Sequence record: PZ445524.1
Origin: a phage
Reading direction: 5' to 3' (one strand)
Length of the DNA: 64,000 nt
Positions within the stretch are counted from its first letter, which is position 1. Every line of letters starts with the position of its first letter. Position numbers and translations under genes: made by a program. Positions 20,978-28,004 of the stretch are shown one piece after another. The notes beneath the pieces are model-generated. The model was not told the DNA's origin and searched no databases. It saw only the letters and a program-made list of their open reading frames with translations.

Positions 20978-21220
20978 TTATTCCTTAATTCCTAGTACTT
21001 GTTTAAAAGTCTCGTCGTAATCAAGACTTTGGCCCGTTTGTTCTTTATGTTTGTATATAATATCACTTACTTCTGATAGCATATTTTTATATGAACGAGT
21101 TAAAGCTGATTTAAGCACGCTGTATCTATCAGGAAATTTACCGTGTTCATTATAATAAGCTATTGCTAATTCACGGACTGCCTTTTCGGCAGTCTCCATA
21201 TATTCTTTACGCTTGGTCAT
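20978..21220 (-). CDS. Hypothetical protein (nrdC.1 position)
   Basis: Track ORF runs to 21379 inside the upstream gene; in-frame ATG at 21218-21220 ([10 protein letters not shown]...) gives 80 aa. Confidence 0.4.
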
Positions 21221-21503
21221 TTTCTTCTCGGTCAAATCGGTGTTTACAATGGCGACATTTATAACGAAGATTATTAGTCTGCCAATGGACCAATTGCACC
21301 TGTTCAGTTCCACATTCAGGGCAATTAGGAACGTATTTAGAAGCCCTTTCGCGACGTTTAACCATAGCCATAATGGCATCCCATGCTGGAGGTTTAAAAT
21401 CTAAATCGTCAGTAACTAGCAGTCCTTTATCAAACCCAGCGCATGGAGTCCATTCAGGAAAATCTGAAGCTTCGGCAATATCTTCTAATAGACGCTTTTT
21501 CAT
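21207..21503 (-). CDS. Zinc-ribbon protein
   Basis: 98 aa with CPEC...CRHC four-cysteine zinc-ribbon signature. Confidence 0.5.
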
Positions 21504-22426
21504 TTCAATACCTCAATAGCATTACGTAAACCATTTGCTTTTGCATTAAGAGCTTTTAACAATTTGGTGTGTTCTGCAATTTGGGCTTCAACTTCAATCA
21601 AACGAGCATTGAGATATTCGCGTTCTTCTTTCATAGTATCATTCCCATGATTGGATTTTGGTGTAGGTTTAAATTCACTAGGGTCCTTTAATTTAATAAC
21701 AAATTTAGTTTCAAACAGTGAAAGACCATAATTCATATTATCATCAAAGGATTTGACTACATCCATATCAGATAATAACACGCGTAAATTATAAGCCAAA
21801 GAACTAATAGTTTCATTGTGTTTATTAGCTTCGCGTGGTTTCATATACGGAAGATTTTTATATATCTCGTGCGGAGCACAAATGATAATTGACAATTCAA
21901 ATTGCCCATTCTGGGACGATGGAGTGAATTTAGCCGTAACCCAGTCTTTTACATTTACATTAATAGTACGGTTATCACCATGACAAAACAGTCTACGAGA
22001 ATGCTTAAAAAGCATATTCACATTATTATTAAATTCGTGTGAAAATTCACTAGCAAATTTTTCTTTACTATCTTTAGAAAACCATTCTTCTAAATAAGTT
22101 CTTTTCACGTCGTTAATAATATTAAATGTAACAACACTAGCATTTGATACATTAGTCTCAATGTAGCTTGGATACATAAATTTTTTAACATTATTAACAG
22201 CTATCACAGAAGATAGTAATCGGGAACGTTTGAACCACTCGAGCAAAGAACCAAGAGAATGTGAATATGCATTTTGTGTATCTTTACAAATATGGTTTTC
22301 CCATCCAATATAGTCTAAAAAATCACGAAGAATATTATTGATTACTGCTCTGTGTCCTATCTGATAATTACGATGTTTAGTAATAAGACTGTCAAAATAA
22401 TCAATATAATGTTTACGAGTTTTCAT
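21500..22426 (-). CDS. Hypothetical protein with C-terminal coiled coil (member 1 of 4)
   Basis: 308 aa; last ~40 residues heptad-like ([37 protein letters not shown]). Confidence 0.55.
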   Translation of the reverse strand: MKTRKHYIDYFDSLITKHRNYQIGHRAVINNILRDFLDYIGWENHICKDTQNAYSHSLGSLLEWFKRSRLLSSVIAVNNVKKFMYPSYIETNVSNASVVTFNIINDVKRTYLEEWFSKDSKEKFASEFSHEFNNNVNMLFKHSRRLFCHGDNRTINVNVKDWVTAKFTPSSQNGQFELSIIICAPHEIYKNLPYMKPREANKHNETISSLAYNLRVLLSDMDVVKSFDDNMNYGLSLFETKFVIKLKDPSEFKPTPKSNHGNDTMKEEREYLNARLIEVEAQIAEHTKLLKALNAKANGLRNAIEVLK

Positions 22427-22478
22427 GTTCTTCTCACTTGGTTAATGATTTATACTCCGAGCCATCCTTGGCTTTAAA

Positions 22479-23480
22479 TTACTTAATTAACTGTAAAGCT
22501 TGTTCCAGACGATCAAGACGATTAACAGATTCTTCCCAAATCCTTTTAGCCTGCTCATATTCTTTCTGCGCTTTATTAGAAATTTCTAGAACTTCTTTAT
22601 AAGCTTTTTCTAGTGCAATAACTTCTGGACGAATTTCTATCGGTTCAGGTGAATCATCAAGACATTCCATTAGTTCCTCAAGGGTAGTTTCTTCTTTAGG
22701 AGTATTCACAATTTCATCACATTTTTGTTGATAAATTTCTTTATCAGTAGGTGAGTACGCGCACTTTACTTCACGAAGACTAATTACAATTTTATATCCT
22801 TCCCAACCGCATATATTCTTAAAAGGATAAGTATGAATATTTTCTACTGTTTCCATACAAAGTAATGCGGTCTCTAATTGACGAGTTATAGTGCTAGCAA
22901 TTGAGAAAAATTTATTAATGTTCTTTTGGTTAGTTTCTGGTGTAAAAAATCCATAATTCACAAAAATAGATACTTTATTTTTATCAAGTTCATATTCTTT
23001 TATGATAATCATATCAGAAGCCAAAGGATGAATTTGACGATAATCGCCATAACATAATTTAGAAGCTGATTTTAGAATCTGTCCTTTGAAAAGTCTGAAA
23101 TTACTAATCCAACGACGAGTAAAAATATTCTCAGGGTCTTCTTTATTATTAAGATGATAAGAATTAACATCACCGAACCAATTATATCCTACTACATCTT
23201 TGGTTCGTTTAATTTCTTTCCCAAAATTACCAAGAATATCCCGATTAACCAAATATGAAAGAAGACGAGACTCTTTAAAGGTTTTCTTGATAAGATCTTT
23301 ATCTACACGGCTAGAAATTTTACGAATTTCATGAATAAATTTAGTAGAAGAAACAATACCTGCATCAACACTATTGAGCCATTGATTGATAATAGAAAGA
23401 ACGCTATTTTGGCCAAACATCGGTATAGCTTTATCATCAATAACGCTATTGAATGATTTGATATATTCGTTACGAGTCAT
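22479..23480 (-). CDS. Hypothetical protein with C-terminal coiled coil (member 2 of 4)
   Basis: Track start is TTG; ATG at 23478-23480 with GAGGAG SD gives 333 aa; C-terminal coiled coil. Confidence 0.55.
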   Translation of the reverse strand: MTRNEYIKSFNSVIDDKAIPMFGQNSVLSIINQWLNSVDAGIVSSTKFIHEIRKISSRVDKDLIKKTFKESRLLSYLVNRDILGNFGKEIKRTKDVVGYNWFGDVNSYHLNNKEDPENIFTRRWISNFRLFKGQILKSASKLCYGDYRQIHPLASDMIIIKEYELDKNKVSIFVNYGFFTPETNQKNINKFFSIASTITRQLETALLCMETVENIHTYPFKNICGWEGYKIVISLREVKCAYSPTDKEIYQQKCDEIVNTPKEETTLEELMECLDDSPEPIEIRPEVIALEKAYKEVLEISNKAQKEYEQAKRIWEESVNRLDRLEQALQLIK

Positions 23481-23506
23481 ATTAATCTCCTCAGTAGAAA
23501 GTAAGA

Positions 23507-23540
23507 ACATTATACCACATCCTTGTGGCAAAGTAAACTA
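23507..23540 (-). promoter_or_regulatory. T4-type early promoter (GTTTAC ... TGGTATAAT)
   Basis: Near-consensus -35 and extended -10 just upstream of the 22479-23480 gene. Confidence 0.5.
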
Positions 23541-24563
23541 GTTCAGTGCATTTAGTGCATTGTTCAGTTTAGAACGTTGCTTTGTCAGATTTTGAACCCT
23601 TGACTGAGCTTGTTTTAACACCTTTTCAGCTTCTAGCACTTCATTGGTCGCTTTAACGAGTTCAGCATCTACTGCTTTAAGAGACTTCTCAATCGCATCT
23701 GCATGCCATTTTTCAACAGGTTTAAGACTCGGATTTTCAACAGGAAGAAAATTCACTTTATTGAATTTCCATGCATCTTTATTACCTGAACTATACATCC
23801 AAAATTTAGGATCGTTTGATAAGTAATTGGATAAATTTAAATTTAAGTTATCTTGCACTTCCTGCTTTTTCTCTTGCGGGACTTCGTCCTTTCTCAAAAA
23901 TTCATATTTAAATGAAACGATCATATCAAGTTCATATGATGTTGTATCTAACTTAAATCGTTCAAAACGAGGTAAAATCTTAGATTGAACAGCAGCAACA
24001 ACATCCATATACTTAAATGCTTCTGTCAACTGTGATTTAAGGCATTCACAAATTGAAAGAGAATTTTTTGTATTAGGTTTAAAGCTAATTCGTGCAGTTC
24101 TATTATTTTCTTTTAACGGTCTTACTTCCATCTGAAGAGTATAACCATCAAATTTCAGATTCTTTAAGTTAATATCAGAGCCTTTTAATCGACTAGCAGT
24201 AGACAAAATTTGCTTTAATTGTCTACGGAATAGAGCAATAAATCTCCATTCAAGACGATAATGATTTGGATTGAAAAATCCAGATGATAAATCGACCTTA
24301 CTTTGACCAACGCCTTGAACAAATAGAGGATTTTTATAATCAATAGTTTTACAGAAATCGGTGAGCTGCTCACGAGCAGTCATTTGTGTAATATACCCCG
24401 CTTTACTAAAATGACGTAACCATTCACTGCTATTCATATATTTAAAGTGAATATCACGATTAACTTTATCAGGGTCTAAATTATTTTGGCACAAAAATGT
24501 CATAACATCACGAGTATAGCTGGCATTACGAACCATATCTTCAATTTGAGAACGAGTTTTCAT
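23538..24563 (-). CDS. Hypothetical protein with C-terminal coiled coil (member 3 of 4)
   Basis: 341 aa; C-terminal coiled coil. Confidence 0.55.
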   Translation of the reverse strand: MKTRSQIEDMVRNASYTRDVMTFLCQNNLDPDKVNRDIHFKYMNSSEWLRHFSKAGYITQMTAREQLTDFCKTIDYKNPLFVQGVGQSKVDLSSGFFNPNHYRLEWRFIALFRRQLKQILSTASRLKGSDINLKNLKFDGYTLQMEVRPLKENNRTARISFKPNTKNSLSICECLKSQLTEAFKYMDVVAAVQSKILPRFERFKLDTTSYELDMIVSFKYEFLRKDEVPQEKKQEVQDNLNLNLSNYLSNDPKFWMYSSGNKDAWKFNKVNFLPVENPSLKPVEKWHADAIEKSLKAVDAELVKATNEVLEAEKVLKQAQSRVQNLTKQRSKLNNALNALN

Positions 24564-24571
24564 GGTGTTCC

Positions 24572-25459
24572 TTAAGATTTAAGTAAATCAACAATTTTAA
24601 TTAACTTTTCACGCTCAGATTTAGCTTTACTACTCAATCCAGATAGTCTGAAAATTTCATCATCATATTGTTGAATAGAAATATTCAGCTCTTCAATCTG
24701 TTTATTAAAATAATCAATTTGTTCAGAATGTTTTTCGTTACTACGAAATGGTACAAGTTTTGTAGGCAATTTAGTTGAACTGGATTCATTCGGGCGATAA
24801 ATTAAAATGCAATTTGAACCAATCGGGCATTTAGCACCAGATGAATATTCTAACGTTCCAGCTTCTTTTAAAACTTCAAAAGCTAAACAGAGATGATGCC
24901 CCATATTAACATAATCTGTAGAGCGAGCTCTGATGTAATAATCATCTCCACGAGTACTAAATTTAAAGCATTTAAGGTCTTCTGTATTATTGGTCTTAAA
25001 AATCATTTGTTTATCTAGACCTTTAGCTAATCGAGCACCTAATGCTAATAATCGTCGTTGATTTTCCCACAAATCTGCGATCATTTGGTCGAATGATAAT
25101 TTCGGCATTAGTCGGCCATAAAGGTCATATCCTTTATTATAATTACGAAGGATTTCACTCGCGTTAATACGAGACAATGCTCCAATTTTATTAAGGGCTT
25201 TCATAATGCGATTAGATAAACTCATTCCAGACCCGTTTGTTCGCTGTAAATGTTTATCTAATCCAAACCCAATATCAACTTTAAATTTATCTAAAATTTC
25301 TGCATGAACATCTTTATCAATAACATTCAAATCCAAAGTTGGGTTAAATCTATGAAAAAATTTATCTGGCTCTCCACGACGAAGTACAGTCCATTCATTC
25401 AATTTTTTATTAACTAAAGATTTAATTACTGCATTGACATTATTAATTACTACTGACAT
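24572..25459 (-). CDS. Hypothetical protein with C-terminal coiled coil (member 4 of 4)
   Basis: Track start is TTG; ATG at 25457-25459 with GAGGAAAAT SD gives 295 aa; C-terminal coiled coil. Confidence 0.55.
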   Translation of the reverse strand: MSVVINNVNAVIKSLVNKKLNEWTVLRRGEPDKFFHRFNPTLDLNVIDKDVHAEILDKFKVDIGFGLDKHLQRTNGSGMSLSNRIMKALNKIGALSRINASEILRNYNKGYDLYGRLMPKLSFDQMIADLWENQRRLLALGARLAKGLDKQMIFKTNNTEDLKCFKFSTRGDDYYIRARSTDYVNMGHHLCLAFEVLKEAGTLEYSSGAKCPIGSNCILIYRPNESSSTKLPTKLVPFRSNEKHSEQIDYFNKQIEELNISIQQYDDEIFRLSGLSSKAKSEREKLIKIVDLLKS

Positions 25460-25466
25460 ATTTTCC

Positions 25467-25874
25467 TCACTCAATTTCAATTTTACTAAATATACAGAAT
25501 AAGATAGAACAGACTATATAAGCACCACACACAGATTGAACTAATACCATTCCAAAGAACCAAACAATATTATCAAACCATGTCTGTTTTACGTCGAAAG
25601 GACGTAAACTTACAGTAATATTATCACCTTTTTCTATTGAAGAATACATCTCCGGTGAAATATATTCGCTAAATCTATAACCGTCTTTGAGTTCATATAC
25701 AGCAATAAACGATAAACTAGACCCCTTTCCTTGAGTTCCTGTAAGGGTATTAACTACAGTAACATCATAATCTTTATAATGCATATAATCATTAATTGCG
25801 TAATAACCATATGCAATTACTATACATAAACAACATATCAATAAATTCAATCTTTTAATTATCAACTGTTTCAT
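25467..25874 (-). CDS. Membrane protein
   Basis: 135 aa with N-terminal and C-terminal hydrophobic helices. Confidence 0.5.
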   Translation of the reverse strand: MKQLIIKRLNLLICCLCIVIAYGYYAINDYMHYKDYDVTVVNTLTGTQGKGSSLSFIAVYELKDGYRFSEYISPEMYSSIEKGDNITVSLRPFDVKQTWFDNIVWFFGMVLVQSVCGAYIVCSILFCIFSKIEIE

Positions 25875-25904
25875 AATAATCTCAATTAAAAGGGCTTAGA
25901 ACCA

Positions 25905-25929: not shown

Positions 25930-26457
25930 TTATGCGAGTACCGTCTTTAACCGTTCTTCAAACTTCCGAAGAGTGTTCTGGCGTTCAGCTCTTTGCTTTT
26001 TGTAAGTTTCAATACGCTCTGAAATGAGAGTGTATCGTTCATTTACTGATTCTTTCATAAAATCAGGAATTTCACGAGAAGCTTTAATCTCATCAAATTT
26101 ATCAATAACAGCTTGCTCTTCAGCAATTAAGTTATCATACATCAAAATATCTTTCTTGATGAACTCAATATCTTCTTGAGTTACACGAGATAATTTAGAT
26201 GCTTTATCCTTTTTGTACTGTTCATTAGTATCACGAGACCAGTGTAATGTACGATTTTTATTCGTATTTTTGTAAATTTCTACAATACCAATCTCATCGA
26301 TAATAACGATCCAATTCCAACGAGATTTGTAAATTTGCCCTCCGTCAACCGTGATTTCACCTCCGATTGAGATGTCATTAAAGAACTTGCTTTGTGCTTC
26401 AGATTTAAATTTACCATCGTTGTAATTTACCAGGTTGAAAATATCTTTAGCGTTCAT
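25930..26457 (-). CDS. Hypothetical protein
   Basis: 175-aa ORF with charged helical C-terminus. Confidence 0.5.
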   Translation of the reverse strand: MNAKDIFNLVNYNDGKFKSEAQSKFFNDISIGGEITVDGGQIYKSRWNWIVIIDEIGIVEIYKNTNKNRTLHWSRDTNEQYKKDKASKLSRVTQEDIEFIKKDILMYDNLIAEEQAVIDKFDEIKASREIPDFMKESVNERYTLISERIETYKKQRAERQNTLRKFEERLKTVLA

Positions 26458-26517
26458 TTTGTGTTCCTCCGTAGTTGATAGTTGTATAGTACCACAGAGG
26501 AACAGTCTTGTAAACCA

Positions 26518-27956: not shown

Positions 27957-27984
27957 TTTTGTGAAAAATTTTTGAAATAAAAAA

Positions 27985-28002
27985 GGGAGCCCGAAGGCTC
28001 CC
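27985..28002 (-). terminator. Hairpin gggagcc-cgaa-ggctccc after the nucleotidyltransferase gene
   Basis: 7-bp GC stem with UUCG loop in mRNA, 2 nt after the stop, followed by U-rich tract. Confidence 0.5.
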
Positions 28003-28004
28003 TA

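Follow-up and report, generated by a model that had tools for sequence, protein, structure and literature searches.

The 64,000-nucleotide stretch of phage DNA analyzed here (sequence record PZ445524.1, hereafter the window) carries a tandem array of four minus-strand genes, nrdC.3, nrdC.4, nrdC.5 and nrdC.6, which, as judged from sequence comparison, are diverged paralogs of one ancestral gene. We propose, at a probability of about 0.6, that this array represents a diversified, Straboviridae-specific paralog family whose oligomeric, non-enzymatic products inhibit host immunity, where the targets of NrdC.3, NrdC.4 and NrdC.6 and the underlying mechanism are predictions. All four genes were assigned by synteny and by alignment with the annotated T4 record, and their sizes and positions are as the original prediction had read them: nrdC.3 (21500-22426; 308 amino acids, 90.3% identical to T4 NrdC.3), nrdC.4 (22479-23480; 333 amino acids, 98.2% identical to T4 NrdC.4), nrdC.5 (23538-24563; 341 amino acids, 97.3% identical to T4 NrdC.5 and thus the orthologue of an anti-Dsr1 gene discussed below) and nrdC.6 (24572-25459; 295 amino acids, 94.4% identical to T4 NrdC.6), the last being the most diverged member of the family. 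The window is a Tequatrovirus (T4-like) genome: the DNA of the array region shares 95-97% identity with over 460 genomes of this genus, and the array lies in the variable early-gene region flanked by gene 49/nrdC and nrdC.10/nrdC.11. For nrdC.4 the start was placed at the ATG at 23480, which is preceded by a GAGGAG Shine-Dalgarno sequence, and a longer reading from a TTG (to 23531), which would overlap the promoter, was discarded; nrdC.6 in its 295-residue reading starts with MSVVINN, the same N-terminus that is conserved in other genera.

The common ancestry of the four proteins is not evident from direct comparison. Pairwise BLASTP searches with the whole proteins or with their globular heads were insignificant, save for a marginal nrdC.3-nrdC.4 match (E 0.003), and the proteins fall into three separate Pfam/PHROG families. 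NrdC.5 matches the Pfam family DUF7235 (PF23882) over its entire length (402 bits against a gathering score of 30 bits, E 2.5e-120; protein residues 1-341 on model positions 1-307 of 307), and in the same search NrdC.3, NrdC.4 and NrdC.6 had no DUF7235 match at E ≤ 1, nor did any of the four proteins show a Pfam domain besides DUF7235. PHROG 1435 is matched by both nrdC.4 (E 2.3e-168) and nrdC.3 (E 1.9e-101), and PHROG 2257 by NrdC.6 (E 9.3e-151). Among precomputed annotations, PF26899 is found on 105 of 105 nrdC.6 homologues, and PF26897 on all nrdC.4 homologues as well as on P0056, a natural fusion of NrdC.5 and NrdC.3; the window proteins had no PF26897 match in the local Pfam search. The original prediction had left two options, a diverged paralogous family or unrelated globular heads that share an acquired or exchanged coiled-coil oligomerization tail, and the latter can further draw on the best profile match between nrdC.3 and nrdC.6, which sits in the tail.

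Profile-profile comparisons nevertheless place the homology in the globular part. The nrdC.3 and nrdC.4 families align over 213 N-terminal columns (HHalign 98.2%, E 5.5e-14). Iterated HMMER searches of local open reading frames (ORFs) from nrdC.4 converged on nrdC.3, nrdC.4 and Roth66, a Klebsiella-phage relative, and never reached nrdC.5 or nrdC.6, so that these had to be linked by comparing profiles with each other and by drawing on a wider range of sequences. When Roth66 was merged into the nrdC.3/nrdC.4 profile, the latter matched nrdC.5 over 237 collinear columns (90.1%, E 1.6e-6). A profile built from nrdC.6 alone gave weak matches to nrdC.3 or nrdC.4 taken singly (E 0.003-0.007, with scores about twice those of the controls), and nrdC.6 membership therefore depends on intermediate sequences: once enlarged by four relatives, the nrdC.6 profile matched nrdC.5 at 95.6% (E 1.1e-8) and nrdC.3/nrdC.4 at 94.7% (E 5.8e-8), in both cases through the globular part and not the tail, as exemplified by nrdC.6 residues 86-146 aligning with nrdC.5 residues 49-128. 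Controls with reversed alignments and unrelated families gave E-values of 0.08-0.8.

Furthermore, a search of 1.84 billion representative proteins with one profile covering the four families retrieved 32 clusters at E 0.001, the full-length ones among them spanning 284-348 residues, and proteins that bridge several families along their full length. Scored against the hidden Markov models (HMMs) of the individual families, P0236 matches nrdC.6 (3.9e-16), nrdC.5 (1.9e-9) and nrdC.4 (6e-5), P0242 matches nrdC.5 (3e-10), nrdC.4 (1.9e-8) and nrdC.3 (2.9e-5), and the two find each other by BLAST at 1e-12 over 259 residues. In the window and ten related loci, a combined four-family profile recovered members that had not been part of the model, including sequences from other genera, at E ≤ 2.4e-4, the next-best ORF scoring 0.038. 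Together with shared motifs outside the tail and with the same order of secondary-structure elements in the NrdC.5 and NrdC.6 models, the globular-part matches and bridging sequences lead us to reject unrelated heads on a shared tail as very improbable, and the diverged paralogous family is the option that stands.

The limits of the family were probed with the same tools. No fifth copy was found in the 64-kb window with the combined profile; nrdC.8, considered as a candidate for its helical C-terminus, encodes 175 residues, gives HHalign E-values of 0.09-0.13 against all four families and has a weak heptad signal equaled by 8 of 200 shuffles, and was set aside. Proteins of about 330 residues in phage phiR1-RT (locus L007, 12224-13210) and Acinetobacter phage KARL-1 (locus L022, 18396-19427) have a helical, heptad-like C-terminus and the family motifs by eye. 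Their profile matches are weak (E 0.007-0.05, plus one of 5e-4 to a single family), and both may be very distant members. The KARL-1 protein, family-like in its position, size, tail and by-eye alignment, was missed by the superfamily HMM and matched by the nrdC.3 HMM alone (5e-4), and we assign it to the family tentatively. Sequence searches of the PDB with three family profiles found nothing, and a search of IMG/VR with the nrdC.6 alignment returned close relatives only.

The alignments further delineate a common architecture. In independent MAFFT runs the motifs align across the four families and in related proteins of Klebsiella, Enterobacter and Yersinia phages. The N-terminal region, which is helical and often begins with M-(K)-T-R-x-x-Y-I, contains the motif F-K-x-S-[RG]-x-L-S-x3-A-x3-L-x2-F; it is followed by a helix ending in A-[SR]-[RK]-L-x-x-G-D-x-R and a beta hairpin, by an A-L-x-x-M-D-V-V helix and further strands, and by a variable, probably disordered linker that leads to P-V…(W/K)-H-[AS]-[DE]-x-I and the C-terminal tail. 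The AlphaFold2 (AF2) model of NrdC.6 (mean predicted local distance difference test, pLDDT, 77.7; predicted template modeling score, pTM, 0.65) has an N-terminal half made of helices, then a beta-beta-alpha-beta-beta unit, a disordered linker and terminal helices, and the low-confidence model of NrdC.5 follows the same sequence of elements. With the NrdC.6 model as query, Foldseek matched proteins of 300-335 residues from other Straboviridae genera (E 2e-7 to 8e-4); the identity of the BFVD matches (from IME523, Mineola, Acj9 and others) with the syntenic genes that we had extracted could not be confirmed.

Not a single column is invariant in the superfamily alignment, the three that come close being Leu, Ala and Pro, and polar or catalytic residues conserved throughout the family are lacking; this pattern argues for proteins that bind rather than catalyze. 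The product name 'thioredoxin' that nrdC.1 to nrdC.11 bear in many GenBank records, and the adjoining nrdC, nrdD and nrdG genes, would instead suggest thioredoxin-like or nucleotide-metabolism proteins. The label derives from the positional locus name nrdC.N, from which it has been propagated, and the RefSeq versions read 'hypothetical protein'; given also that Pfam searches of the four proteins matched no thioredoxin or glutaredoxin domain at E ≤ 1 and that no hit to a thioredoxin-like fold was obtained, we regard this alternative as scarcely credible. Three of the four proteins are basic, with isoelectric points (pI) of 9.1-9.4, on which ground an Ocr-like acidic DNA mimic was considered and rejected.

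Each protein ends in a heptad-patterned helical tail, as had been noted from the raw sequence, although at about 44-58 residues the tails are somewhat longer than the 35-45 first estimated. They are encoded, all on the minus strand, at 21503-21634 (NrdC.3, residues ~265-308, ending LRNAIEVLK), 22482-22631 (NrdC.4, residues ~284-333, ending LEQALQLIK), 23541-23720 (NrdC.5, residues 282-341, ending LNNALNALN) and 24575-24736 (NrdC.6, residues 242-271 and 277-294 in the AF2 model, ending LIKIVDLLKS), and share a terminal motif, (Q/E)R-x-K-L-x-x-A-[IL]-x-x-L-K, located 8-10 residues from the protein end. In the four family alignments the hydrophobic period is 3.45-3.50 residues, the power at 3.5 exceeding that at 3.6 in each of them, and Leu, Ile, Val, Met or Phe occupy 45-65% of a/d positions versus 9-17% of the remainder. 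By family, the period and the a/d fraction against that elsewhere are 3.45 and 0.54 vs. 0.17 for NrdC.3, 3.45 and 0.45 vs. 0.17 for NrdC.4, 3.50 and 0.65 vs. 0.09 for NrdC.5, and 3.45 and 0.65 vs. 0.17 for NrdC.6. A cruder heptad scan of single sequences ranked the tail windows of NrdC.3, NrdC.5 and NrdC.6 above 199-200 of 200 shuffles; for NrdC.4 the best window was not the tail but residues 185-212, a score equaled by 16 of 200 shuffles, and its heptads are therefore the weaker ones. In the AF2 model of NrdC.5 the tail forms a single unbroken helix (residues 282-340, pLDDT 67-93), the sole confident part of that model. Judged by a 3.5-residue hydrophobic periodicity over at least 4-5 heptads in a proline-free helix, all four tails qualify as putative coiled coils, NrdC.4 being the weakest example; the helices themselves are predicted by AF2 for NrdC.5 and NrdC.6.

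Functional information comes from the literature and not from the raw sequence, which, as the original prediction remarked, tells nothing of what the proteins do. A T4 clone with a deletion spanning nrdC.5 lost the ability to infect Escherichia coli ECOR17, and infection was regained upon deletion of dsr1 in the host or expression of nrdC.5 from a plasmid, which identified Dsr1 as a SIR2-domain defense protein overcome by T4 NrdC.5 (Srikant, Guegler & Laub, eLife 2022, PMC9391042). The window gene is an early, non-essential orthologue at the same genomic position, and by analogy with its T4 counterpart the window NrdC.5 would be expected to counter Dsr1. In the earlier study nrdC.5 is treated as a single uncharacterized gene, without its kinship to nrdC.3, nrdC.4 and nrdC.6, its domain layout or its heptad tail. 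Rather than turning the four genes into T4 orthologues of known but unrelated functions, this anti-Dsr1 role is compatible with a paralog family.

The neighborhood of the array has a similar character. T4 nrdC.1 is reported to be a Septu inhibitor and bas37_0203 an inhibitor of Druantia type III (HIDEN-SEQ preprint, 10.1101/2025.11.20.689424); Bas37 is phage KarlGJung and bas37_0203 its nrdC.8. Both have close counterparts in the window, namely NrdC.1 (20981-21220, 100% identical to T4 NrdC.1) and NrdC.8 (25933-26457, 99.4% identical to Bas37_0203). Gp49.2, whose gene follows a few positions later in T4 and T6, inhibits OLD (PMC13096335); counterparts of T4 49.2 and 49.3 are absent from the window. 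The region comprising nrdC.1, nrdC.8 and the array is, in our assessment, an anti-defense island. NrdC.1, NrdC.8/Bas37_0203 and Gp49.2 resemble the family in belonging to the same hyperplastic early region (gene 49 to tk), in being non-essential and in their restriction to Straboviridae, but are non-homologous to it, smaller (80-175 residues) and single-copy.

All named members of the superfamily come from Straboviridae (T4-like phages), and a survey of conservation and copy number across these genomes, as proposed at the outset, yielded the following pattern: one recognizable copy in Karamvirus, the Klebsiella T4-likes and Tegunavirus, at the same site just upstream of nrdC.2/nrdC, and two to four copies in the coliphage genera. 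T4-type Tequatrovirus has all four genes, RB69 (Mosigvirus) has nrdC.3, nrdC.5 and nrdC.6, Dhakavirus and Gaprivervirus have nrdC.4, nrdC.5 and nrdC.6, and Yersinia phage fPS-2 has nrdC.3 and nrdC.6. Such variation, together with the P0056 fusion, the apparent frameshift in RB69 nrdC.5 and the scoring of all four genes as non-essential in T4 and Bas37, on laboratory hosts, in the HIDEN-SEQ tables (preprint 10.1101/2025.11.20.689424), would be compatible with NrdC.5 alone being useful and the other three genes being redundant duplicates that drift toward loss. Each gene is nonetheless found as an intact full-length ORF in 550-700 phage records; the most widely retained is nrdC.6, in 742 records, and not nrdC.5; and the paralogs, although less than 25% identical to each other and hence old, have been kept across four genera. 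Within Tequatrovirus the ratio of nonsynonymous to synonymous substitution rates (dN/dS) is 0.07-0.44 for nrdC.3 to nrdC.6 and 0-0.08 for gp49, nrdC, nrdC.8, nrdC.10 and nrdC.11, such that the four genes are less constrained than their neighbors but still under purifying selection. Drift of three superfluous copies is on balance quite improbable.

Several irregular copies were encountered in this survey. In RB69 (locus L002, 5973-6875 and 6601-7000) the reference nrdC.5 carries an apparent frameshift close to the 3' end, the annotated C-terminus lacking heptads and another frame reading ...LDKAQAKLRDAQSVVTNLQLQYSKLFNAMNALKS up to its stop, which is the canonical family tail; either the sequence contains an error here or the truncation is genuine. 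Within the NrdC.6 of Shigella phage Sf25 (P0121, 378 residues) a segment of 83 residues (176-258) is repeated in tandem; it runs from the end of the alpha/beta unit through the linker into the beginning of the tail helix. In P0056 (299 residues, encoded on a 167-kb contig) NrdC.5 residues 145-273 are joined to NrdC.3 residues 134-308 at an NKVN/NNVN microhomology, and nrdC.4 and parts of its neighbors have therefore been deleted in that phage.

A further pattern concerns nrdC.3, whose alleles fall into two classes, at 90-99% and ~62% identity, in Tequatroviruses that are 95% identical in other respects. Proteins of the second class have the Tequatrovirus N-terminus and tail around a central segment of ~200 residues that is 83-100% identical to RB69, and the comparison of the respective loci (window 21500-22426; L005 6897-7826; L002 6998-7942) identifies this class, on sequence grounds, as a central-domain swap between genera.

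In light of these observations and the published genetics of NrdC.5, we propose that the proteins of the array would be made early in infection and act as oligomeric binders, whereby at least two copies would associate through the heptad tail, and a host immune protein would be bound and neutralized by the central alpha/beta region: Dsr1 in the case of NrdC.5, and other defense proteins or Dsr1 variants in the cases of NrdC.3, NrdC.4 and NrdC.6. Gene duplication and central-domain exchange would in turn widen the set of hosts open to the phage. A more elaborate version, which we consider unlikely, casts the proteins as modular anti-immune adaptors in which the constant N-terminus and heptad tail provide a scaffold, perhaps for mixed oligomers of different paralogs, and an exchangeable central domain sets the target, so that each paralog would act against a different defense, NAD-depleting or other; the host range of T-even phages would then grow by gene duplication and by central-domain swaps between genera, for which the nrdC.3 alleles are suggestive.

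It is important to note that several observations weigh against a family of oligomeric immune inhibitors. An anti-defense role is on record for NrdC.5 alone, and the evidence for it is genetic, by plasmid complementation; in the literature searched we found no publication on the binding, structure or mechanism of NrdC.5. In the HIDEN-SEQ rows for nrdC.3 to nrdC.6 that were accessible, no conditional phenotype is significant, the closest effect being that of bas37_0201 (nrdC.6; log2 fold change -0.73, p 0.057, q 0.81; preprint 10.1101/2025.11.20.689424). The dN/dS values of the four genes are well under 1 and positive selection is not demonstrated. On the structural side, models cover NrdC.5 and NrdC.6 only; the former has a pLDDT of 42.8 with a low-confidence globular part, having been built from only 23 sequences that are mostly more than 87% identical, and in the monomer model of the latter the two terminal helices resemble helical hairpins, such that this tail may fold back on itself rather than oligomerize.

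With their basic pI, three members would also suit nucleic-acid binding, in line with a different account of a genuine family: early in infection the proteins could attach to nucleic acid, of the phage or the host, or to a host factor common to them all, with NrdC.5 defeating Dsr1 indirectly, for instance by hiding its trigger. DSR1 is still referred to as 'poorly characterized' in later literature; furthermore, the conservation of the tail and N-terminus in all paralogs and genera fits a shared partner, and the absence of significant conditional phenotypes in the HIDEN-SEQ rows at hand agrees with such a role. We consider this indirect route doubtful and favor direct inhibition of immune proteins by oligomeric binders.

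Direct inhibition has a precedent in DSAD1 of an SPbeta-group phage, which inhibits the SIR2 defense protein DSR2 by direct binding (PMC10981675, PMC11087589). The likeness is that of a phage protein acting against a defense-associated sirtuin, direct binding being also the mechanism that we envisage for NrdC.5; tests for sequence or fold similarity between the family and DSAD1 found none. A second parallel is offered by the T4 internal proteins IPI, IPII and IPIII, likewise a small T-even-specific paralog set of which individual members counter different defenses and whose content varies by phage: IPI counters a type IV restriction system and IPIII an ECOR17 system of undescribed type. The internal proteins, however, travel inside the capsid and have a targeting motif in common at the N-terminus. 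The NrdC.3-6 family shows no motif of this kind; its expression starts from early promoters once the DNA has been injected, and its common element is a C-terminal heptad helix.

As for that expression, a T4-type early promoter precedes nrdC.4 (and nrdC.3) at 23537-23509 on the minus strand (GTTTACT-17 nt-TG-g-TATAAT). It conforms well to T4 early promoters, and its equivalent in phage fPS-65 is annotated 'predicted early promoter', in agreement with the strong early promoter called earlier at 23507-23540. Two further minus-strand sites lie upstream. An early-promoter-like sequence before nrdC.8 (26486-26514, TTTACA-17-TACTAT with TG), for which fPS-2 and fPS-65 both have a predicted early promoter annotated at the corresponding place, probably also feeds nrdC.7, nrdC.6 and nrdC.5. 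A promoter-like site before nrdC.7 (25858-25885) contains a MotA-box-like GCTTTA element, and its fPS-65 counterpart is annotated 'predicted middle promoter'; it is possibly a middle promoter feeding nrdC.7 to nrdC.5. The regions upstream of nrdC.3, nrdC.4 and nrdC.7 (~22440-22478, 23509-23537 and 25858-25885, all minus strand) have in common a spacer, CCA(C)AAGGATG(T)GG, before a TATAAT-like element, the nrdC.3 copy of which looks degraded, and as far as these sequences indicate the promoter may have been included in the duplication unit. Between nrdC.11 and nrdC.10, at 27984-28003 on the minus strand, a strong hairpin resembling a terminator, AGGGAGCC-TTCG-GGCTCCCT with a T-run after it, corresponds to an annotated terminator of fPS-2.

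The genes themselves and the phenotype of NrdC.5 were already known, and the kinship of nrdC.3 and nrdC.4 is implicit in their PHROG and Pfam groupings. New with respect to the literature searched are the union of all four genes and the single-copy genes of other genera in one family, the domain map with its constant scaffold and exchangeable center, and the prediction that NrdC.3, NrdC.4 and NrdC.6 are counter-defense factors.

T4 is the best-studied large lytic phage, and about half of its genes are without an assigned function. Our analysis ties nrdC.3, nrdC.4 and nrdC.6, as well as their single-copy relatives, to a gene with a demonstrated counter-defense role, and as paralogs of NrdC.5 the three proteins are good candidates for acting against other bacterial defenses. 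The domain map, with its constant N-terminus and tail and its swappable center, can guide work on how NrdC.5 stops Dsr1. Finally, the copy number of the array and its allele type may help explain host-range differences among 95%-identical Tequatroviruses, a matter of relevance to phage therapy.

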